A stretch of 46,535 nucleotides of DNA, counting the filler, from Streblomastix strix (Eukaryota), in assembly GCA_008636045.1 (NCBI GenBank). It is 2 parts of 2 records of this genome, joined end to end, with 100 filler letters (N's around TTAATTAATTAA, not from the genome) between each part and the next. Parts side by side here need not be neighbours in the genome. Positions count along the whole stretch, not along the records: positions 23,325 to 46,535 come from SNRW01000296.1; 1 more part is not named here. One strand, written 5' to 3'. The notes under the pieces were generated by a model, which was not told the origin of the DNA, did not search any database, and was given only the letters and a program-made list of their open reading frames with translations. Positions 5,631 through 41,153 of the stretch are shown here, piece after piece. The translations under genes were made by a program, and so were the position numbers. Each line of letters opens with the position of its first letter. The stretch's first letter is position 1.

Positions 5631-5843
5631 GGTCGTTCTGGATAATTAACCTTATTTATCAACGATTCTAGCATATTTTTATCATAATTTATACACTTTG
5701 TTCAGAATACTGGGAATCTAAACAATTATTTGAAAATGGAAAATTGTGGAAAATCAACGCTTAATATCAATGATTCTAACACATTTTTATCATTATTTAC
5801 ACGCATTGATTATATAAATTACTAAGAAACAAATGCCAAAAGC
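5631..5843 (+). repeat. Left terminal inverted repeat of the pPolB element
   Basis: Reverse complement of 13277-13491 with few mismatches. Confidence 0.92.
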
Positions 5844-5867
5844 GCATCAATTCCAAAAAAAATGAAA

Positions 5868-6546
5868 TCAATCAGAACGTTGAAAATATGGTTATTAATT
5901 AGCTTTTCGATAATTAACTCCAAACATGTGTTGCATAATTTCTTCAGATGATTTAGAGGGAAGTGCATTTTATTTTCGTAATTACTCTATAAATTTATCA
6001 TGATCGGACATCTTAGGTTCATTCGTTTGAATAATTTTATTATATATCATTGCATCAACCAAAGCGTAGATATTTCGAATGTAATCTCCAAGCAACTCAT
6101 GATCAATAAAAGCTATTACATTATTCAAATCTTTTTATTCTTCATTTGGCACATTCAATAAATAATCGTCACGAAGTTGTTAACATTTTTTATGATCAAT
6201 ACATGATTCAATTCCAAAAAATCCACATAGCACATCACAAGTTGCTTCTAACATTTAGCCCAACTCACTTTCGAATAAAGCTCCATTAACATCTTTAGAG
6301 TCAACTCCTGATGTTGGTTAATTATTTTTGTTATCTTATTATGAATAATGATTAATCAAGAATTTATTTACAGATGATTTAAAAGAATTTTTATCATTTT
6401 ATTCACTTTATTCACTTTAATCTCTTTATTCACTTAATTATTCAATTATTTTTTCCATAATTAATTTGCATCACCAACATCCTGAATTATCGGATAAATT
6501 TATTTTGAGAATGATGTCTAATTTGCTGGATCTATTAATGTTTCAT
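5868..6546 (-). CDS. Hypothetical protein of the pPolB element (5' part probably frameshifted)
   Basis: Open code-6 frame ...PTSGVDSKDVNGALFESELGQMLEATCDVLCGFFGIESC...QHMFGVNYRKANQQPYFQRSD-TGA; no motif recognised. Confidence 0.5.
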
Positions 6547-6862
6547 TTTAATTTATATTTAAGTATATTTCTAGCGATTTTTAGGTAATACGTCTAAATA
6601 TAATCTATCACGTCGACGTACAATACGATGAATTAATATATGTATATATTTATTAATGTTGAATGATTTAATTTAATCGAGTGCAGGGTTGTCTAACATG
6701 AACTGTCTAATCTCTTCAGGTGATGTTAATTTTGATAAATTCTATAATATTTCTAATAGGTATTGAATTATTTGTGACATATTTCGAAGCTATAAAAATT
6801 CTAATATTAATTATCATAATCAACTTTTAATCGTCTTTCTTAACTTTTTATCAGGTTCAAAA

Positions 6863-9800
6863 ATGGCTAGAAAATATTTTCTAATTTCTGAAGTTCGTGA
6901 TATGCTCAATCAACTTGATGTTCAATATGATCCTAAATCAACCAAACCAATAATTGAATAACTATTACTACAAACAATCAAAGCATAAGGTTACAATGGA
7001 ACAAAGAGTAGCATTACTAAGATAAGTGAGTTTGTTCGCAATACTGTTGCAACTAAAAATTAATAAAATTACGAACAGAATAGCATCAAAAATTCCGCCG
7101 ATGGTAATGATACAACTAGCAACGAAGTTGCCGCCGAAGGTAACGATGAGACTAATGAATATGATGATGAATAAGAGTTAGTATAATTATAATAATTAAG
7201 AATCAAAGCAAAATAAGAATTGAAACTGGCCACAGAAAAATTGGATGAAATTAATAAGTAGATTGAACTTAGATAGTAAGTGACAAGACTATAGCAATGG
7301 AATAATCAATTAGCTATTGATAGCCACTAACTCAATGAGATTATGGCTATCAATCTCGTCAAGAAATCTATGAGAAATCGTTAACAAATCAATGAAGCAA
7401 AGAGATAACTATAAGAGTTAAAGGATAAATAAGTGTAAAAAATTAATGAAATATAATAATAGAGAATCAATGATATGAATATAATCAATAAGGACTATGT
7501 AACTAATATAAGAGCCTAGTTAGTTCACAATTTAGACTTGATAAAACCAACTTAAGCAGCTAGGAAAATCCAATGATAATATTAACGATATAAACAACGA
7601 AAAATAATAAACCACTTCATTAAAGATCTCAGTAATACATTCTAGCAAGTGAAACGAATTAGAGATGAAAGATTATCAGATATTAACAATAATAAACTAA
7701 CCGAAGAAGAATACACAATTAGATAAGCAAAATTAACTGAATCACTACTCGGATTCTATAAAAATAAATAATTAAAAGAACCTGATCTCAAATTCTCTAA
7801 CGAATATAACGCTAATATTGATGATTAGCGCAAGGCATTTAGGTTTTTTTAGTCTGATGATTTGAAACTATTTAATGAGATCCTAATTGAAACAAGAAAT
7901 AGATATAGAGAATAGAATGAGGTTGATCTTACTGGGTTATCTGATGGATCAGCATAAAGGAATAACATATAAAATAGAGAACCATATCATTCATATTACT
8001 TTAATAAATTTACTCACATTAAATAATTCGATGATAAACTAGCATAAGCACATGAATTACATAAACATAGAAAACATAAGATAGCTGTGGATTTCGGAAG
8101 CATCTGGTAAACTATTGAATCGACTCATACCAAGAAGGGAATCAGAAACGACTATAGCTACCATTACTATAAACCATCATTAGAAAATTCATATAAAAAT
8201 TACCCAATAATTATACGAGATAATGCTTCACTTAAACAATTCAAAGATAGAGTTCATGATATGATTTACGAAGATTAGTCACCTCTTCACTAAGAATCAA
8301 ACACTAGAAAAGTTGCACTTTATTCTTTTGTTATTATAGTTTATAAATTACCACTTGGAACAAAATTATGACCTGAAGTATAATTGTTTAATGAGCATGA
8401 TTACACTAGATCAAATGATTGCGATTATAATATTTGTTGGTTCATCGCTGCTTCATTTCAATTATATCCTGAAATAAATTAAACAAAAACCAGTATCGCT
8501 AATGCAATTGAACTATTCCTATAGTTTAACGATCAATTTCATAAAGATGAAGGAAAATTAAACAAATAATAAAAATAATTGTTGAAAGAGTGTGATGGAT
8601 TCAATTAAGATACGGATCTAGAAAAATTCCTGTAATGCTTCAAGCTAAACGTAATGACTTATGAATATGATCACTCTGAAAAATAATTCAATAAAACTAA
8701 CGAATATATTGTTAACTAGGAGTGTGTAACTACTCATATTTTACTAGCTCAATTATCTATTCAAGGTGATGAAAATCCATAATTTCATGCGATATTAATT
8801 AAAAATATTGATCGAGTAGTTGGTGGATACTTATGTAAGAAATGCAATCAAAAATTATTCGATAGGTCTAGTGATAATTTCAGTACAGAATTGAAGAAAC
8901 ATATAGAATCATGTAAGGGACCTGATCAAATGAAGCATCCAAAACTGGATAAATTATCATAGCCATTTATATCATATCTCAAATCTAATAAAACTATTCA
9001 AAATTTATTCGCGATAATTAAAACAAAGCAATTCCCAAAGGATAATGAACATGGAGTAAACGGTATACTACAAACTACAAAAAATTATATGTGTATTGAT
9101 GCAGAAACTGTTGAAGATTAAGCTTAAGATGCTGAGTCAATTTACGCATAACTCAAACCATTATCTATAGTTATTAGCACATAAATTAACAACAAAATTT
9201 AATCAAAATACATCGATATTCGAACATAAAATTTCATGAACAAATTCATAGAGTAAATGTATGAGCTAGCGAACTAGGTTAATGAAACAAATTTAGCATG
9301 TAAACGGCTTGTCAAATTCGATAACGAGAATGAATAATAAAAACATTAATAAAAGATTCATCAAGTAGCAATCTTCGGATTCAACTCAAAGAAGTTTGAT
9401 TTTAACCTCATATTTCCATATCTAGATTAATATCCTAAAATCATATTCAAAAATAACTCATATCTCGGGTCAACTACTCAACAGAAGTAAGTGACAATTA
9501 GACATATAGATTATCCTTTCGAGCTAGTGTTCAAGGATGTTCTTACATTTATCCCTCCGACTACTCCAGATAATTTTGTTCATAAGTATGGTAATGGAAC
9601 TAAACTAACTAAGGGTAAATTTCCACATGGATCTTTCAACGTACTTAATTACAATCAGTTCTTATCATCAACCGAACCATTTGAACATAAAGATTTTTAT
9701 AATTAAATTAGTCGGAAAAAAGTTAGCGATAAAGATTATTAAGAATACGTTGATGATTTCAACAGTTTCGATGAAAATAGGAACAGAAAATTTAAAGATA

Positions 9801-11937
9801 AATGGTCCTATCTGAAGTACTATAATATTCATTATGTAGAGTGCATGTTTGCTCCAATCAATAATTTAATAGAATTATATTGGTAGTAAGATATTTATAT
9901 GTTATCTTAAATATCCTTATCTCATATTGCTAACTCAATTAAGTAAAATTATGTTTGGAAAGATTTCGACATTAATGCTGATTACAACATAGAAAACGAC
10001 CGTAAAGAATATGAATTTTATTCAGAAAAAATGGTGTTAGAAAGTAGAATCATATATACAACAGGATAACAAAGCAGGAAGAGATACAACAAATAACGTA
10101 ACTGCTGATGATATAGATTGGGCTAATGAATTGAATCCAAATAAATGCTGCTACTGCTAAGCTAAGTTCACTAATGTAAACATGCCAACTCATGAACGAA
10201 TAGACAACAACATTGCTCACACAAAATATAACTGTAAACTGGCTTACTAACTATGTAATTCTTCACGATCAAACAAAGATGCTGATGTGGCGAAATTAAT
10301 GATATAGATGTACAAGTACGCTATTGCTAAGAATCTACCTATGACAATTGATGATGAAGAAGTATATTGGTTTTTACGCAATTCTATCCATGGTGGATTA
10401 TCATAAGTATTCCATCAATATAACTTCAAAGTACTAACCCACATAAATAAACTAAGGTATAATCCTGAAGACAAAAACTTAACCGCTTACGATTAAGATT
10501 ACATCATTACGCATATTCTAGATCTTGATTTCAACTCATTATATCCATGCGCTTTCTGTGGAATTTATAATAAAAATAATCCGTATAATGGATATAAAAT
10601 GTATATGCCCGGGAGAGTTACTATGCACATTAAAATACGTGAAGCTAACGACTAAGTTTATCGAGAAACTAAACGAAAAGAAATGATGAATATCATTAAC
10701 TCAGAAGATCGATTTTCTGAAGAAAAAGGTTAGTTATTCATAGCATCAGTTAAGGGTCATATCGATAAGAATCACATTAATGAACACTTTAACTTTCCAC
10801 CTATCTGGAGGAAGCGAACTTATAAAACTGATAAGAAAACAGTTGGTAAATTCACTTATGAAAAAATGTAAAAATAAGGAATGTCTGCTAATAAATTAGA
10901 AACAAAATTAACTTCATTGCTATCAAATCATGATGAATTCATGTCATTTAGCTCATACTACCTTTGGCTATTGATTGATTATTGTCATTTCATTATCGAT
11001 GATGTTGAAGAGATAGTATTATTCACCAAACATACCGCGTTCAAATCATTCGTAGAAGTGATGACTGAGAAACGTTAACAAGCAATGCGAGAAGGTAATT
11101 AAGCTAAATAACTTTATTTCAAAAATATAATGAATAGTTCAAATGGTGCTGATGGATAAAATAATGAGAAATTTGATAAGATTGGTATATTCAATAAATA
11201 ATAAACATATCTAAAATAATTGAATAAAAGCTTCACTAACACTCGAAAGATTTGCGAAGACCGATATATTGTATCAATTAACCCTGATTCATTCTCTGCT
11301 CACAAGTGCTTATAAGAAAGTATCTTCACTTAAGACAATTCTAAGTTCTGGTTTTTATGCTTCATTTACTTCTTCTTATGCAAGTGTATTGATACGGATA
11401 GAGTTCAATTCTGCTGCATGAATACTGACTCCATGTACTAAGCAATTAGTGGTTCAACTATCGAGGGGTATAAACAGTAATTCAAATATGAAATTAAGGA
11501 TCAAGAATTCTGGGAAAATCATTACAAAGAGTGGTTACCATGGGAAGGATGTTCGATTGCTGAAGAAACGAAACTACTAGGTTGTGCTATTGAATTATGG
11601 AGAGAAAGCATCATCTGTTTAGCTCCAAAATGTTATTCTGCAATTGATGGGGAGGTTGATGATGTAATAAGAATGAAGGATGTTAATGAAAAGAATAGTG
11701 GTTTAAGAAGAGATGATTACATTAATTGTATTGAGAATAATTCAAATGTATCAGTTCCAGTTACTTAAATTTAATTGAAAAAATCGAGTGATGTCAATGG
11801 TAAAAATAACTAAGTCTGCATTAACAGGAGTAGTTGATAAAATGATAGTAATTGATGGCGATATTTCCAAAGGTTAATCATATCCATGTGCACCTCAAAT
11901 TTTTGGAGTTGATGCTTCTAGTTATCTTTATATTTGA
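6863..11937 (+). pseudogene. polB: Protein-primed family B DNA polymerase (Polinton-type pPolB) with long N-terminal region; disrupted by in-frame TGAs and a frameshift near 10030
   Basis: ExoI CIDAET (about 9090), ExoII GFNSKKFDF, FKDVL, KGKFPH, SIHGG, motif A DFNSLYP (10527-10547), motif B KNIMNSSNG, motif C NTDS (11421), LAPKCY; CxxC...HxxxC zinc finger at about 8835-8915. Confidence 0.93.
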
Positions 11938-11952
11938 TCATTTATTTATTTT

Positions 11953-13289
11953 TCAAAAGTAATATCGAACTCTTATAAATAAACATTACGTAATGAACCA
12001 ATGTTTTCGCTAACTTTTTTACAATAGTATATCGGTAATTCTACAATAAACAATTATTAGTATTATGATATGAATTATCTTAATAATTTACATACCACGT
12101 TACCGTTTCTATATTCTATGAATTCTGCTAGCTCATTAAATTATCTTCTTCTTTTCACGTAAGAGAAAGCGGTCTTTGATAAATCAAGATGAATCATCAA
12201 TATGTTACCTTGTTTAAAATCTAATAGTCCTTCCGTTTTTTATTTTTGTTTAATAACATTTGACTCTTATTCCTTAATTCTAATGAATGCACCTTCAATA
12301 TCTGAGTTATACTATATTTCCTCAGGTGAAAATTTATTATCATACGATAGATGTGGTGTCTTGTTATTGATATAGACTAACTGTTACAATTTTTCAGGAT
12401 CAGCAAAATCATTATTGCTTGTACCAAATCCATTACGAATAGTCTTAACTACTGAGTCAACTATTCCATTGTGTTATGTGAACGGTGATCCTGTGAAAAA
12501 GCACTAAATTCCTTACTCTTCTAAGAACTATTGTACATCCTTTCCTTTGAATGATCTTTCATCATCTCCTCTGATATTAGTTACATACTATTAATTTATA
12601 AGTTTCTTCAGTGCAGTAATCAATTGAGATGCTGATTTATTGATTATTGGAAATACTATCAAATATTTAGTATTAACATTAATTGCAAATAAATAATTAA
12701 CTTCTCTATTTTTGCTATTTCGTTCAAACACAAGATCAATCTCCCAAGAACCAAATTAGTTACTAAAATATGGTCTATAAAATTACTTCAGTGGTTTTAT
12801 CTAATAATCTTAGACTCTTTATTAAATTTTCTATGTTTCGACATTATTGATTTTAGCATAAACTTTCACTTTAGTTCTCCAAGGAAATTTAATAATCTTA
12901 AATGTTTCATTTTCCTAATCACTTACTTACTCTTATTATTCATCCTCATCTTTTAATTTTATCAGTTTAGGACGACCACTTTTCCCACGTTTTCGTACAT
13001 TATATTTCATTGCTTCTTATACGTAAATTTCATACTACAATGCAGTAGATTTTTCTCCAATAATTACTTTCTCCGCGTTATTCAATAACACTTAATATTC
13101 TCGTTTGTTCTTAAATATTTTGAGTTGTGTTATGAAATTTGACAGATTCAACAATTCCTTTGCTCTAGCTAGACGTGTGATTTATTGCTATATATTTAGT
13201 GTGTCATTACCAGACTAATCTGTATCCGCAAAATAATATTTCTTAATAATATTGAATAAAATTTATTGCTCGGTCAGCGCTTTTACCAT
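11953..13289 (-). CDS. Retroviral-type (RVE) integrase of the pPolB element
   Basis: RPYFSNQFGSWEIDL, YLFAINVNTKY, IRGDDERSF, FFTGSPFTQHNGIVDSVVKTI, NKTPH; an N-terminal GRPK AT-hook-like motif. Confidence 0.88.
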
Positions 13290-13491
13290 TTGTTTCTTAG
13301 TAATTTATATAATCAATGCGTGTAAATAATGGTAAAAATGTGATAGAATCATTGATACTAAGCGTTGATTTTCCACAACTTTCCATTTTCAAATAATTGT
13401 TTAGATTCCCAGTATTCTGAACAAAGTGTATAAATTATGATAAAAATATGCTAGAATCGTTGATAAATGAGGTTAATTGTCCAGAACGACC
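13277..13491 (-). repeat. Right terminal inverted repeat of the pPolB element
   Basis: Reverse complement of 5631-5843. Confidence 0.92.
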
Positions 13492-26328: not shown

Positions 26329-27483
26329 AAGTAGTAGGCAAAAGAATCTCACTGCTTTATGAAATTTAAACTTAAAAATTACGGAAAAATTAATAGTGGA
26401 TATAATCAATCGTAATAAAAATGAAAATAATTTTTCGATAAAATGAGTGAAAAATAATTAATAAAAATGATTTATGGATAGGATTTATTGATATAATTTT
26501 TATATAGGATTTATGAAAATAATTTATGGATGTGAAATGAATGAAAAATGAAAAATGAAAAATGAATAGGATTTATTATAATAATTTATGGTGATCGCTA
26601 ATGTAATAAGGTTATTTTTTAGGTTAAATTACATTGGGCAGTGAGATTCTTTTGCCTACTACTCTTGGAAATTAATTTATGAACTCAATCTTACATAGTT
26701 ATTTAATTTTTGAGAATTTTTTAATGATTAGAGATTTTATGTTTATTTGTAGTGAAACAGTGTAAGAAAATATGGGGGACCTTCAAGGTTTTCAATGATA
26801 TACGATGGATGAAAAATGATTAATCATAAGGATGAATGATAAAAAATATCTTATACGGAAAATATAAATAAAAAATTAAAAATAATTGAGGAAATTGAAG
26901 GTGACCAATAGATTCAGAATCACGAATAAGCAACATTTTTAAATTCTTCGTATGTGATATGACCTTAGTGAAGAGTATGAATGAGATATGAAAAATTGAA
27001 AAAATTGATAAGATTTCAATAATCAATTTAAATATTTTAAAAATAATATATAGCCAATAAAAAATCAATATATACAGTAAAAAATAAATGTTTTCTGAAT
27101 GACTTGAAAATTGATGCATTAGTCAATGTTGATACCCTGATCAGAAATATGATGATAAAAGTTAGTAATGAGACTGATGATTCGGTAAAATTAAGCGAAA
27201 CAATGAAAAAGATTAATGGAATGGATAAATGAAGTGAATTGTCCTTGTGTCCTGAGTTTCTTGAGTGTCTTGAATCATAAGCTGACACCTTTGATTCCCA
27301 TCATATTAGACAAAATGCTATAAAGTTAGCGAAGTTGAGAAATGATATGAATTGCCTATGTGTCCGGAATGTCTTGAGTGTCCTGAGTCTCAAGTTGATT
27401 CCTAGGATTCCTGCCATATTGGACATAATTCCTTAAAGTTAGGGAAGTGGATAAATGAAGTGAATTGTCTGTACAAATAAAAA

Positions 27484-27650
27484 ATGGCAGCCTCTTTGAA
27501 AATGGAACACGGATTTGTTTCACCATTAGTAAGTGTGTGCTAGCGGAGTGGATAAATGAAGTGATTTGTCTAGGTGGAACAAGAAACGGAACGGAACAAA
27601 TCCTAGAGACGCCTGCAAATTCTGTCAGCAATCTGCCATAAGCCATAAAT
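27484..27650 (+). repeat. About 165-bp repeat, copy 1 (upstream of primase-helicase)
   Basis: ATGGCAG...TTTGAAAATGGAACACGGATTTGTTTCAC...GCCATAAAT, repeated at 30539-30705. Confidence 0.9.
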
Positions 27651-27702
27651 TAAATAAAAATTTGTTTTAAGAAACTATTTGAACTTTTTATCCGAAAGCA
27701 AA

Positions 27703-30538: not shown

Positions 30539-30705
30539 ATGGCAGGCACTTTGAAAATGGAACACGGATTTGTTTCACAGATAGTATGTGTGTGCTAGTG
30601 GAGTAGGCGAAGGAAGTCATTTGTCTAGGTGGAACAAGGAACGAAACGGAACAAATCCTACGGACGCCAGCAATTTTTGTCTGCCATCTGCTATATGCCA
30701 TAAAT
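30539..30705 (+). repeat. About 165-bp repeat, copy 2 (downstream of primase-helicase)
   Basis: Direct repeat of 27484-27650. Confidence 0.9.
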
Positions 30706-30928
30706 GAAATTATTGATGTGATGTCTTGGAGATGTGACCATTATTTTTGGAAATGAATGATTCCATGATAATTGAAAATCCTTCAATATATTTGTGAAAA
30801 TGAGGGTGGAACAATTTTAAAAGCTGATTATTTGGATGTCTACCATAAATGAATTCATATGGTAGTGCAATTTAGGTAAAATATCTATTAATTGTTCAAA
30901 TTAAGATTCAAAATGAAGGATTATAAAA

Positions 30929-31342: not shown

Positions 31343-32134
31343 TCACGCTCTAATCATATTCAGTAATTTTATAATTAATTTACTAGTATTATCATCTAAA
31401 TCTAAAGTGTAATATTATTGTTTTGTTCGTTAATTATCGTTAATAATCTTATAAAATCTATTCAAATCTATCTCTTGTATCTCTTCTCTGTAAATAGCAG
31501 CATAATCACTCTTGATCGATCGTTTATTCATTTTATCTCCAAAACTAATTCCTTTAAATATTTCATTCAATAATTGTTTTTCTTGCTTGTTATATCTTAA
31601 CGCAATTGATAGAGGAACAAATGAGTTTGATAATTAATATATATTTTCCAAGAATAATAATCGACCCATTCCACTGTTCCCATCTTCATGCGGATGAATA
31701 CGTTCGTATAATAAATAACACGCAAACAGAACAATAATCTTATTAGATTGATCATACTCATAAACGAAGTCCAGTAACTATTACAGTTCATTTGGATCGA
31801 TTTTTTCATGTTAAATTCCAACATTAGCTGCAGAAATTATTTTTGAATTATTCTTATTATTAACATAAACATTATAATGCCTAAATGTCTCTCTATTGAA
31901 TAGTGCATAGTATATTTCATCGATCTATGGCACTTCATTACTCTTCAGATAGTCAATTGCATCATTAATTTTACCTTTTGATAATATATACTATTCAATA
32001 CAGTTAGTATCCATAATATCCTTATACATTATTCTATCTGCATCAATCGTATCTATTACCTTTCCTATTTAGTCATATCCATCATCATTGAACGTTATTG
32101 TAAATTCTTTAATTTTTATCGATTATCTTGGCAT
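31343..32134 (-). CDS. Fic/Doc-domain protein
   Basis: FRHYNVYV followed by YERIHPHEDGNSGMGRLL (31661-31696), versus consensus HPFxDGNGRxxR; open frame of 264 codons. Confidence 0.85.
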
Positions 32135-32328
32135 CTTTTAAATAATAAATGAAATGATATTCGTTATAGTTGTTGGAACTTCTTTAGTGTTCATCGCTAT
32201 TGCAAATATTGGCTTGTTTCTTATTGCTGCATCTGCATATAATACGCCAACCAAAGAAGAAGAAAAGACTCCAATAAATTTATCATTTTATTCGTGACTA
32301 TTAGACCTGTTATTTTTAGTTATAATAA

Positions 32329-32922
32329 ATGTTATAGAGTCGATCAGTATCACTATCTGAAAGAATATCATAAAAAGAGGTAATGTCACCACGTTTATCC
32401 GTATCAATAATTCCAGCAATTGTAGAAGTTGGTTCTCCATTCGAAAAGGAATAAGATAAAGTGTCTGTTCAATCTGTTTGTTCAAGAAGAAGATCATCCA
32501 TATTTGAAGAAATAATAATACCTGATCCATCAGTATGTCGATGGCTACTTGAAATAATTTGTGAAGATGAACACATAACCAAAGAATCAGCACGTTTCAT
32601 ATTATCTGAACATTAATTAATAAGAGTAATTGCATATACATTTGATGAAGTGGAAAACTAAGTTGTACTTAATTCAGATGATGAAGGATGCTGGGGTTAA
32701 TTTATGCACGATGGCACTAGAACATTAACAGATATAACAATAAATAATGTTAATATTCTTACTCTAAATATCGATAAAGTCAATCTTCTCAAATATTCAT
32801 ATAAAATATGCTTATAAAAAATAGGAAAAATAACTAGTATATTAGATCTTGGAGATATCTCATCAAAATTAATGTTTGCTGCAAGTAAAAGATTAATAGT
32901 AGTTCTATCACAAATTCATTGA
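32329..32922 (+). CDS. Hypothetical viral protein (197 aa)
   Basis: Uninterrupted code-6 ORF MLQSRSVSLSERISQKEVMSPRL...LSQIH-TGA. Confidence 0.6.
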
Positions 32923-32949: not shown

Positions 32950-35820
32950 ATGGCTGATGCAGACTTACACTCACTAGATGTGCTCATAAAACATGATGAA
33001 ATTTTGTTCGAAAACATTAGATATAATTCAATTAGCTTAGTTGAATAGGTCGAAAATACTAACAATCAAATCAATATGATAAATAATGCGCCTACACATG
33101 ATGTATATACTAGACCTGAAGCAAATGAAATATTTGATACAAAAGCTGATAAAACTGAGACATATACTAAAACAGAAACCGATACTCTACTTGATGCTAA
33201 AGCAGATAAAACTGACACTCATACTAAAACAGAAACAGATACTCTACTCGATGCTAAAGCAGATAAAACTGACACTCATACTAAAACAGAAACAGATACT
33301 CTACTCGATGCTAAAGCAGATAAAACTGAAACTCATACTAAAACAGAAACAGATACTCTACTCGATGCTAAAGCAGATAAAACTGAGACATATACTAAAC
33401 CAGAAACAGATACTCTACTCGATGCTAAAGCAGATAAAACTGAGACATATACTAAAACAGAAACAGATACTCTACTCGATGCTAAAGCAGATAAAACTGA
33501 CACTCATACTAAAACAGAAACAGATACTCTACTCGATGCTAAAGCAGATAAAATTGACACTCATACTAAAACAGAAACAGATACTCTACTCGATGCTAAA
33601 GCAGATAAAACTGAGACATATACTAAAACAGAAACAGATACTCTACTCGATGCTAAAGCAGATAAAACTGAGACATATACTAAAACAGAAACAGATACTC
33701 TACTCGATGCTAAAGCAGATAAAACTGAGACATATACTAAACCAGAAACAGATACTCTACTCGATGCTAAAGCAGATAAAACTGACACTCATACCAAAAC
33801 AGAAACAGATACTCTACTTGATGCTAAAGCAGATAAAACTGACACTCATACCAAAACAGACACAGATAATCAACTCGATGATAAAGCTGATAAAACTGAA
33901 TTAATTGACTCATATTCCAAGACAGAGGATGATGCTCTCTTATTACTGAAAGCTAATGTTGCAGATTTAACGAATTATGTTGATTTAACTTCTGCTCAAA
34001 CAATAACAGGATAAAAATAATTCGGAGTAATTAGTGTTTCCAGCATATCGAAATTGAGTAAAAATGATGCTTCTATTCTTCTTGCAGATGGAGGAGATAT
34101 GTTAGTTAGTTCATTAGTGACTTAATCATAATTATAAGAAGTTAGAGATATTGCTACAGGAAAGTCAAAAACATATGTATTCTCAACATAAGGAGAGTTG
34201 AATGACTGGATGGCTGATCAGGAGAATGTAGCAAAACTAGTAATTGGAGAAAATTTATATATTGTTGATAAAGAAGTTACTGATTATTGGTGAGATGGAA
34301 CTAACTTAAAAGTACTAGAAACATAATTACCTGATATGAGTAATGTTATCACAACCCTAGGAACAGCTACTGGAGGAGGTAATGCTATTATTGATATATC
34401 AATTGATGGAAATATACTAACACCAGCGAAAAATAAAAATTTTTTAGATGCAGATTACGACCAAAGTATTAGTGGTTAAAAGATATTTAATATAACAATA
34501 CATTCAGTTGGAATCATGGTTTAAACATATGATAATTCAAGTATCGTTTATGCTGAAGGAGGAGTTCGATCAATTGCAGATATTTATAGTGCTTCATATT
34601 ATAAATCGGAGGATGATGCACTCTTATTGTTGAAAGCTGATAAAATATAACTGATTGATTCATATACTAAAGGTGAAACAAATAATCTCTTAAATTATAA
34701 AGCAGATACTGGAGTTTCTTATACTAAAGGAGAAGATGATGCACTCCTATTACTTAAAGCTGATAAATCAACAACATATACCAAAACAGAAACTGATCAA
34801 TTAATATGATAAGTTGATATAGGAGATGTTGATTTGACTGATTATTACAATTAAACAAAAACTGATGAATTATTAGGAGAAAAAGCAGATACAACCGAAC
34901 TATCTAATTATGTTACGTTAGGTACTTCATAGACAATAGCAGCAAACAAGACTTTCAATAATGCTTGTAGATTCGTTAATTCTATAGATGGAATGTCAAC
35001 AGTTACTGGATCATCATTTATCAAATAAGGTGCAGATAATTCTGTCGTATTACTTGGAGCTGGTGGCACTAAACCACTTTCAGAATTTACTGGTAATCCA
35101 ACTGATTTATCAAATTATTATAGTAAAAGTGAAACTTATTCAAGAACAGAAACAGATAATAAATATGTTAGATTGGAAGGTTCATTTCAATAAATAATTA
35201 AAAGAAGGTTAAAATATGTAAGTTCATTTGGTTAAACATATGATGAGACATAAGATCCAGTTGGAAATACATATTTGACTTTGTCAGAAATTGATGCAAA
35301 ACTAACAAATTATGTTAATACTGTTAATAATTAATCAGTAAATGGAACTAAGATATTCAATGCAAATGTTAATGCAACAGGATTTGTGAAAACAGGTAAA
35401 GATGATACATCAGTCTTATTGGCTGGAGGGGGAGATTTTGGTATTATCATCATTTGGAGGATTAGAATTAGTAAATATTACTTATACTAATGATGTGGTT
35501 AATCCAACTTCAATAATGTAACTAAAATGTTATAGATATGGATCACTTATCAATTTTTATGGTTATATATATATATGGGTAATGGAGTAGGAGCATCTGG
35601 TGCTTCAGTTGCAGTTTGCACACTTGCATATGCTGGATTTCTAAAGTATTAATTTTAAGCAGGTGATATAGTTTTTGCTGGCTCTGCACCACATGTTGCA
35701 AATTTCAGATTTGGAACTGATGGAAAAGTTACTATAACTATTAGAACCCTATCTGGAACAGCGGGTTTAGCTGGTTCAGCATCAGCATATATCAACATTA
35801 CATATCCCGCAGCAAATTGA
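32950..35820 (+). pseudogene. Phage-tail-fibre-like virion fibre protein; 2 in-frame TGAs and 3' frameshifts
   Basis: 19-aa repeats DAKADKTETYTKTETDTLL, QTITGQKQF/QSVNGTKIF units, FVKTGKDDTSVLLAGG, and a C-terminal YRYGSLINF...FGTDGKV...YINITYPA head. Confidence 0.75.
33136..33900 (+). repeat. 57-bp coding tandem repeat, 13 copies plus a partial
   Basis: GATGCTAAAGCAGATAAAACTGAxACxxATACTAAAACAGAAACAGATACTCTACTC repeated. Confidence 0.97.
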
Positions 35821-39688: not shown

Positions 39689-40063
39689 ATGCCATTTGGT
39701 ATGACCTCAGCTCCTAATGCAAAACGTTTCGTAATATTGTAGGATAATTGTACGTATGTTGATGGAATGTTTAAAGTACAGTTGCCTTATGATTTTGTTA
39801 ACTCAAATAATCAGCTAAAAATAATATTCGTATAGTGTAAGATTCTTAATACTCCTGATATTGTTTCAATTCATTCAACATTAATATAAGAATAATAATA
39901 TTATGATAGTTTTGTAAGGTTTTGTAATGAAACAAGTACAATTATTGAATTTTAATAAATGAATCATTAGTCAATTATATTGATTTGGTTCAAAAATAAT
40001 ATGAATCAGAAGGTATCATAAACGGATATAAAATTTGTTCTTGAATTGATGTTACAATATTGA
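39689..40063 (+). CDS. Putative minor capsid (penton-like single jelly-roll) protein, 124 aa
   Basis: VQLPYDF, IVSIHSTL, ILIWFKNN...KFVLELML; directly after the MCP. Confidence 0.55.
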
Positions 40064-40065
40064 TT

Positions 40066-40229
40066 ATGAACGAGCCTCTTAAATTTGAAGGGACCTATTT
40101 GATATGGAGATTAGTGGTCAAATTATCGGTTCATTTTGACGGGTAAAATTTTACCCAACAACTTTTAATATGAAGATAAATGGTCAAATTATCGGTTTAA
40201 TTGATCAGCTAAATGTATCCTCTCGATTT
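40066..40229. repeat. Mini-array: two 30-bp direct repeats alternating with three palindromic spacers
   Basis: ATATGgAGATtAgTGGTCAAATTATCGGTT at 40102-40131 and 40168-40197 (27/30); spacer 40201-40229 is the reverse complement of 40509-40537 (28/29). Confidence 0.85.
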
Positions 40230-40296
40230 ATTTTTAAACATCAATTAATAATCATTCTTTTCAGTTTTCTAATTCAACTTTTTTACTAATCTGAAA

Positions 40297-41153
40297 ATGG
40301 AATCAAGAGTCGAAATAGATAATCACTAAACATTCACCAAAACAACATACAATGGAATTGATATTATTTCTCGTAAATCTGATAGTTACGATAATACATC
40401 AAAGTTAGTAATTACATTAAAGAAGCATTAATTTAGTAAATAAAATTAATTATTTAAGTCAAAGAATTGGATAGAATATTACGATCATTTCATTAAATTT
40501 CTTCAGGAAAATCGAGAGGATACATTTAGCTGGTCAACTTTTATAGAGCAAATAGAGACATATGCATATAAATATAGAGGTTATTGAGTTCATCCAAAAC
40601 TAATAAATTATATATCAATATGGGCTTCACCTAAATATGCTACAATTGTTGGCGAAATAATGGATAAAATTAACGAAACAACTATTGCAGAACATGAAGC
40701 TGATAAAACTTAAGCAATAACAGATTAATTCCATAGTGAAATAAATACAGTTACTGATACATTATCTGATAGAATGACTGAATTGAATTAAAAAGATAAT
40801 TAGCACCTAGAGCTGTTTCAAATGGTAAAGAAAGAACATATATATTGATAGTTGAAGAGGCTAATGAAGATGAATAGCTTGAAGAATAGCAGGAAGATCA
40901 TATTACAATACGAATCAGAAGAATTATTAGAAAAGGCTTACGTTCCGCAAAAATAGAACGATATCGTCGTGAATCATTACTTTTTGTTGACAATTTACCA
41001 ATAGCTATGACGATTAATGAGAAAATTAAAGAAACTCTATAATCAAGACAAGATGTAACAATATGGTCAACTCATTATACATTCCCAGAAGACTAATTAG
41101 ATTTCAAAATTGATATAATATAAGCTATAATTAATACAGAAAGAGTACATTGA
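40297..41153 (+). pseudogene. KilA-N (APSES-like) DNA-binding protein; in-frame TGA and a frameshift
   Basis: FTKTTYNGIDII, SKNWIEY, YRGY*VHPKLINYISIWASPKYATIVGEIMD. Confidence 0.88.

Follow-up and report, generated by a model that had tools for sequence, protein, structure and literature searches.

A short array of repeats and spacers directly precedes a KilA-N gene in a 46,535-nt stretch of DNA from Streblomastix strix (hereafter the window), and this array is a family trait of the element copies. Sequence comparison assigns the three spacers to the sites of three distinct KilA-N types within the element family. These sites lie inside the KilA-N genes, in a segment that is no random variable loop and is likely to be the predicted binding site of the encoded protein itself. 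On balance, the array is probably a panel of predicted docking sites, one for each KilA-N specificity type, placed before the KilA-N start for cross-regulation or for an immunity like that of the aba element.

The array and the adjacent KilA-N gene

The direct repeats start at 40098 and 40164, and their 29-nt cores agree at 26 of 29 positions. The original prediction described two 30-bp repeats with a period of 66 bp; the period holds, but the repeat is 36-37 bp long, because public contigs running repeat-spacer-repeat show a 37-bp repeat (40097-40133 in the window) with 29 letters between the copies. On the plus strand, repeat 1 (40097..40133, 37 bp) is common to other element copies, and repeat 2 (40164..40199) is a diverged copy on comparison of the two. 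Spacer 1 (40068..40096, plus strand) is a sense copy of an in-gene site of the FNLKGP type and reads TSLLNLKGP, where paralogs have SGLFNLKGP. Spacer 2 (40134..40163, plus strand) is a copy of a GQNFTQQLL-type in-gene site, and spacer 3 (40201..40229, minus strand) is an antisense copy of the adjacent gene's own site. The leader from the array to the KilA-N start (40230..40296, plus strand) is common to copies that continue into a different KilA-N type; these leader-sharing copies were seen as loose contig ends past 40302 in runs X3 and X4.

Spacer 3 is the reverse complement of 40509-40537 at 28 of 29 positions, as had been predicted, while no inverted 29-mer exceeded 23/29 when the 2-kb region was shuffled 100 times. 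The match stops abruptly at either end, and contigs of run X1 carry spacer 3 without the single mismatch. The spacers had also been described as having TGA...TTT borders and palindromic cores. The borders hold loosely, and in 12-bp arms the bases pair at 7/12 positions in spacer 1, 10/12 in spacer 2, and 6/12 in spacer 3 and its gene copy.

The repeat core occurs exactly twice in the window, both times within the array. With repeat 1 used alone as the reference, 70 public contigs were recovered from four runs of three studies; the letters flanking the repeat differ from contig to contig, and other copies carry other spacers. Since the array is kept in other copies, it is not a one-off inverted duplication, the outcome that the original prediction had named as its refutation. 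Among viral contigs, the search with the repeat core gave 10 chance matches, the paralog alignment found no relative, and the query P0035 gave one weak match. Metagenome contigs yielded one distant locus (L011), whose KilA-N gene has no adjoining array, and genome contigs yielded no two-repeat match. The open minus-strand frame of the array had no match in protein collections, which were searched for arrays inside gene models. A scan for sigma-70 promoters and terminators stayed at chance level, with models that are not apt for this host.

The KilA-N gene (40297..40830, plus strand, end approximate) encodes a KilA-N domain, a long helix, and then likely a DUF3627/T5orf172-like domain. The KilA-N domain (PF04383) scores 37.7 bits in Pfam against a cut-off of 23.8 (E 1.9e-9), and the segment 40509-40537 within it encodes NREDTFSWS, in agreement with the original prediction. 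The gene is broken in this copy by an in-frame TGA at 40585-40587, and the frame is lost further downstream. The structural model of the intact paralog P0002 matches Mbp1 (E 1.9e-4; Z 8.6, rmsd 3.8, 91 aligned), and in this model the in-gene segment encodes a low-confidence loop between the long helix and the wing strand. As a lead from modelling, the C-terminal domain may resemble DUF3627/T5orf172 (feature score 0.86, TM 0.6-0.7). Relatives among P0035-P0127, found in metagenomes and in Histomonas meleagridis (P0100), are likewise hypervariable at the in-gene segment.

The in-gene site and the KilA-N types

The in-gene site of the window (40509..40537, plus strand) has its centre 54 nt before the GYxVHP codons. 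For comparison, 164 KilA-N loci from phages and bacteria (L012-L175) were collected, 13 of them without the anchor motif; 130 were left after removal of duplicates. A palindrome with at least 10 of 12 pairs is present in 72/130 of these loci, whereas each of two equally large control windows gave 0/130. Its centre lies most often at -53 nt from the GTWxHP codons, close to the -54 of the window's segment. The broken pairs of 34 palindromes in the viral set comprise 6 G-U, 10 A-C, and 17 other pairs. Because they lack a G-U bias, double-stranded DNA is likelier than an RNA stem as the form in which the palindrome acts. Back-translated paralog segments have a mean palindromy of 8.2 versus 7.6, 7.8, and 6.7, a score that is saturated by codon degeneracy.

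The bases of the palindrome change in step with the helix of the helix-turn-helix (HTH), which makes the in-gene segment likely to be the protein's own binding site. This was seen in 74 selected loci with a clear even-centred palindrome. Of all alignment columns, the helix residue before Tyr has the closest tie to arm position 5 (0.93 bits): D or E occurs with C in 39/39 rows and H with G in 26/26, and other residues are found in 9 rows. Arm position 7 tracks the residue three places earlier, with E accompanying G (8/8), R, K, or H accompanying C (24/25), and L, D, or Q accompanying T (28/32), rows with unpaired bases being excluded from these counts. Arm position 8 is unpaired in 31/74 of the loci, as though it were unread. 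In a tree built without helix and site, arm position 5 changes 14 times. A tree-aware test found five independent pairs on supported branches, 4.7 of them going the same way and 0 the opposite way, which is not significant (p 0.0625). In prokaryotic KilA-N genes, helix and site thus covary strongly in these alignments, though short of formal proof.

Within 4 kb, the in-gene site recurs at none of the 130 prokaryotic loci (best at most 21/29). The array is therefore not a general part of KilA-N loci, and as far as tested, such arrays seem special to the present element family.

The spacers were assigned to KilA-N types at the protein level, by scoring their six-frame translations against all retrieved proteins. 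The original prediction expected other copies to carry sequence like spacer 1 or spacer 2 in the gene, and in translation both spacers do match the same in-gene segment of paralogs. TSLLNLKGP of spacer 1 matches SGLFNLKGP in P0023, P0028, and P0056 with a score of 33, equalled in 2/500 shuffles with the first protein set and in 5/300 with the enlarged set; a weaker likeness of the FNLKGP type extends beyond the spacer, over about 50 nt from 40055 to 40105. Spacer 2 matches (S/F)VGQNFT(Q/H)Q of P0054, P0059, and P0065 (score 36, 2/300 shuffles), with nine consecutive residues, encoded by 40141-40167, identical to P0059 and P0065. This match came with the second protein search; against the first 49 proteins, spacer 2 had none (246/500 shuffles). 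Spacer 3, the antisense site of the adjacent gene, has no significant match to paralogs other than that gene.

The spacers of other arrays were read by eye, without a statistic: 16 of the 21 listed (from a total of 27) look like sites of five types, across three studies. They comprise five of the SAG..QP type, three of FNL.GP (two by the right arm only), two of CGGN.PY, three of G....QQ, and three of RED...S or similar. Examples are C-G-G-N-S-P-Y beside CGGNPPY (P0012), T-S-P-F-N-L-N beside ISPFNLNG (P0020), and S-A-G-P-I-Q-V-Q-P beside SAGPKKDQP (P0017). The other five of the 21 listed share one further palindrome type, for which the retrieved proteins include no matching paralog. This type, with 6-bp arms and a 4-nt centre, is found in X1, X3, and X4 beside 40127-40139, and may mark an unsampled KilA-N type.

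The unit exchanged between elements appears to be the whole KilA-N domain on a shared C-terminus. In a set of 25 proteins from S. strix, the KilA-N domains average 37% identity between types, while the 45 residues that follow the domain are at least 80% identical in 113/246 pairs, and contigs depart from the window's sequence at 40302 and return near 40657-40660. A 682-bp contig of X4 contains the array and leader and then Q-V-K-T-A-T-E-I-Q-N, the start of P0010, which is of the CGGN type. Its last spacer has at least 5 differences from spacer 3 and an unchanged-looking start, among the 40 of 195 differences listed. The codons of the second HTH helix (40432..40458, plus strand) encode a variant that is paired with the variant of the in-gene site in paralogs. 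At the protein level, 24 proteins show seven helix/site combinations and no mosaic, and 0/20000 permutations gave as few; this count covers the three best-sampled types, whose labels were set by eye. Plain linkage or kinship alone may account for the pairing within the element family.

Possible functions of the array

The operator array, given as the third alternative in the original prediction, fits these observations best. Each KilA-N protein would bind its own in-gene palindrome, probably as a dimer, and elements would swap the whole KilA-N domain by recombination with the upstream region kept. An array with one site per type would stay readable by whichever domain is plugged in, or by the proteins of co-resident relatives. 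Binding at the array could repress or gate the KilA-N promoter, or could mark the element as self, as aba does for BstA. Any plugged-in domain might in this way regulate its own gene, and relatives might cross-regulate the element or spare it. Each spacer may stem from a short tract of a gene that was copied into a 66-bp unit duplicated in tandem. The symmetry of spacer 3 is broken at the same positions as that of the gene segment, which suggests physical copying; the likeness of about 50 nt around spacer 1 fits an old duplication. Several observations speak against the docking sites, among them the five listed spacers of a type that no retrieved paralog matches, the non-significant tree-aware test, and the absence of second copies from the 130 prokaryotic loci. 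In addition, the site in the window pairs at only 6/12 positions and so makes a poor palindrome, and in the fungal KilA-N protein PCG2 the wing and not the helix reads the bases (PMC4862756). The covariation of helix and bases was measured in prokaryotic genes, and the evidence from the S. strix element family is the pairing of helix and segment.

The original prediction favored cassette switching, in which the spacers would be silent donors and the protein would vary whenever gene conversion or inversion put one of them in place of the 29-bp in-gene segment. It is favored by the identity of spacer 3 to the gene segment even at palindrome-breaking positions, by centres that vary within a type in spacers and gene segments alike, and by type-specific outer arms that could supply micro-homology. 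However, the repeats have no homology to the gene flanks and the identity ends at the 29-bp segment, the spacers are in mixed orientations, the type of spacer 1 is only 27-30% identical to the domain of the adjacent gene, and helix and site are paired without mosaics in 24/24 proteins. The X4 contig joins the array to another KilA-N type, and its last spacer keeps a start like that of spacer 3 as far as it is readable. Inversion of 40230-40508 would break the gene rather than vary it, and the product of the segment is a low-confidence loop in the P0002 model. No strand-changing joint was seen in assembled contigs, a weak argument since contigs drop rare variants. Switching of 29-bp cassettes is accordingly improbable. 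Shufflons, diversity-generating retroelements (DGRs), and antigen gene-conversion cassettes likewise keep a second copy of a variable gene segment near the gene; here, flanking homology and adenine-specific differences are absent, and the whole domain is apparently exchanged. Neither a recombinase dedicated to switching nor a reverse transcriptase was identified at the locus. A DGR has a reverse transcriptase and a template-variable pair of repeats, about 100 bp long, whose mismatches are adenine-specific. Such a system was rejected: the pair here is 29 bp long and inverted, with one C/T difference, and the 15 open reading frames (ORFs) scanned include no reverse transcriptase.

The sizes of 37 + 29 bp are CRISPR-like, and the array could be transcribed into small guide or antisense RNAs against the KilA-N mRNAs or genes of rival elements; palindromic spacers would pair with such targets in either orientation. 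An RNA role is less likely because the array folds no better than shuffled sequences (z -1.6), has no Rfam match at E<=5, and has all its assigned spacers at one palindromic spot, which antisense would not need. The repeat hairpin is weak (-2.8 kcal/mol), the palindromes show no G-U bias, and the Pfam scan of 15 ORFs revealed no effector-like gene, so that RNA guides are quite doubtful. CRISPR and TIGR arrays share with this one a constant repeat, here 36-37 bp, and unique spacers, here about 29 bp, with matches in the DNA of mobile elements, but here the assigned spacers all fall on a single palindromic spot within one gene family and the host is a eukaryote. No Cas domain or Tas gene was found among the 15 ORFs of the window that were scanned with Pfam. 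A CRISPR-shaped passport made of DNA, by which the endogenous virus would capture the KilA-N sites of rivals as 29-bp spacers between 37-bp repeats and gain immunity or control without an RNA step, is rather unlikely. If spacers are actively acquired, a eukaryotic virus would have an adaptive memory that works through DNA alone.

The array could also serve as a decoy or origin platform, whose sites titrate KilA-N proteins or recruit them for replication or packaging while the adjacent gene is not regulated. The aba element takes effect as DNA and, when supplied in trans, has to be present in several copies (PMC8585504), as such a platform might. A single site per type would be a poor sponge, however, and the array directly precedes the KilA-N start codon; such a platform deserves about as little credence as RNA guides. 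Least probable is a neutral by-product, in which template switching carried palindromes prone to form hairpins into a tandem repeat between the genes, with no function there. The broken state of the adjacent KilA-N gene in this copy would agree with it, as would the likeness of the FNLKGP type that runs past spacer 1 as in a stray duplication. Against a neutral origin, the repeat is kept in 70 contigs from three studies, the spacer length is steady at about 29, and the sites of five types are collected at one place upstream of the gene.

Docking sites of this kind have relatives among known regulatory systems. Lambdoid operators provide several sites for one repressor type outside the ORF. As in the lambdoid immunity types, an HTH protein and a palindromic site change together here, and sites lie upstream of the gene; the site of the KilA-N genes differs in that it doubles as coding sequence for a stretch of the protein, and the upstream sites would serve different paralogs. 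The BstA protein of the Salmonella prophage BTP1 has a KilA-N-like domain, and its locus contains the cognate DNA element aba, a single stretch of 63 bp that covers the gene start and ends in CCCGCC direct repeats (PMC8585504). The S. strix locus resembles this system in the KilA-N-like protein, the short DNA element in its own locus, and the cognate pairs that differ between variants (PMC8585504). It differs in that the site is a mid-gene palindrome and sites of several types are gathered in an array with repeats between them. No aba-like 63-bp element with terminal CCCGCC repeats is present in 40060-40330. BstA/aba is the nearest tested precedent, and the likeness suggested here is known from sequence and not from defence activity.

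In the literature covered, mostly open-access main texts, neither the in-gene site nor the helix code nor arrays of this kind were found described; within it, the array is real and probably a variant of operator and immunity-type systems that was not described earlier. Medina et al. 2016 state that non-fungal KilA-N domains are little known as to both their function and their recognition sequence (PMC4862756). The locus and the comparison offer a testable answer: the KilA-N site would be written inside the gene, and a two-residue code would predict its bases. They also suggest that specificity types, comparable to the immunity groups of phages, are what the many endogenous viruses sharing one protist use to read each other.

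The surrounding element

The genes of the window are read with TAA/TAG as Gln, and the nearest relatives of the KilA-N protein in the protein search are named Streblomastix strix. A Pfam scan of 15 ORFs found an integrase-like gene, a piece of a DUF5906 primase-helicase, a Fic-like gene, and a P-loop ATPase around the locus. Only DUF5906 and KilA-N lie above the curated Pfam cut-offs; the rve integrase (E 1.5e-4) and the P-loop ATPase (E 1.6e-5) each lie below. The putative capsid ORFs of the window matched no family in Pfam or PHROG. The ORF upstream of the array (39689..40063, plus strand) had been labeled penton-like, a label that was not borne out, with no PHROG match and no Pfam match over the curated cut-off.

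The array-bearing element is virus-like and likely comes from a termite-gut protist. Polinton-like endogenous viruses of metamonads occur in S. strix with the TAA/TAG=Gln code, according to the part of the published account consulted (PMC10120064). The window shares with the viruses described there the Gln code, candidate integrase and ATPase genes, and nearest proteins from S. strix, while that part of the account contains neither KilA-N nor arrays (PMC10120064), and the capsid gene of the window is unconfirmed.

Several other features were observed in the window. A 7.9-kb element at 5631-13491 lies between 215-bp inverted repeats (96%); it contains the pieces of a DNA-polymerase-like gene (8654-11837, PHROG E 0.0016) and, on the minus strand at 11895-13352, an rve integrase, and no capsid gene was seen in it. 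At 26330-26663, a 53-bp inverted repeat (87%), its copies 228 bp apart, surrounds short AT-rich repeats and is possibly an end or origin of the large element. Four 31-bp repeats with spacings of 113, 113, and 101 bp (27214-27655) precede the primase region, and a 172-bp stretch is repeated 3 kb downstream at 85% (regions 27214-27655 and 30539-30710). The Fic-like gene (HPHEDGNSGMGR; 31343-32530, minus strand; Pfam E 0.0012, below the cut-off) lies within the element, and in a fibre-like gene at 33100-33920 a 57-bp unit recurs in tandem about 14 times and encodes (TKTETDTLLDAKADKTDTH)n.
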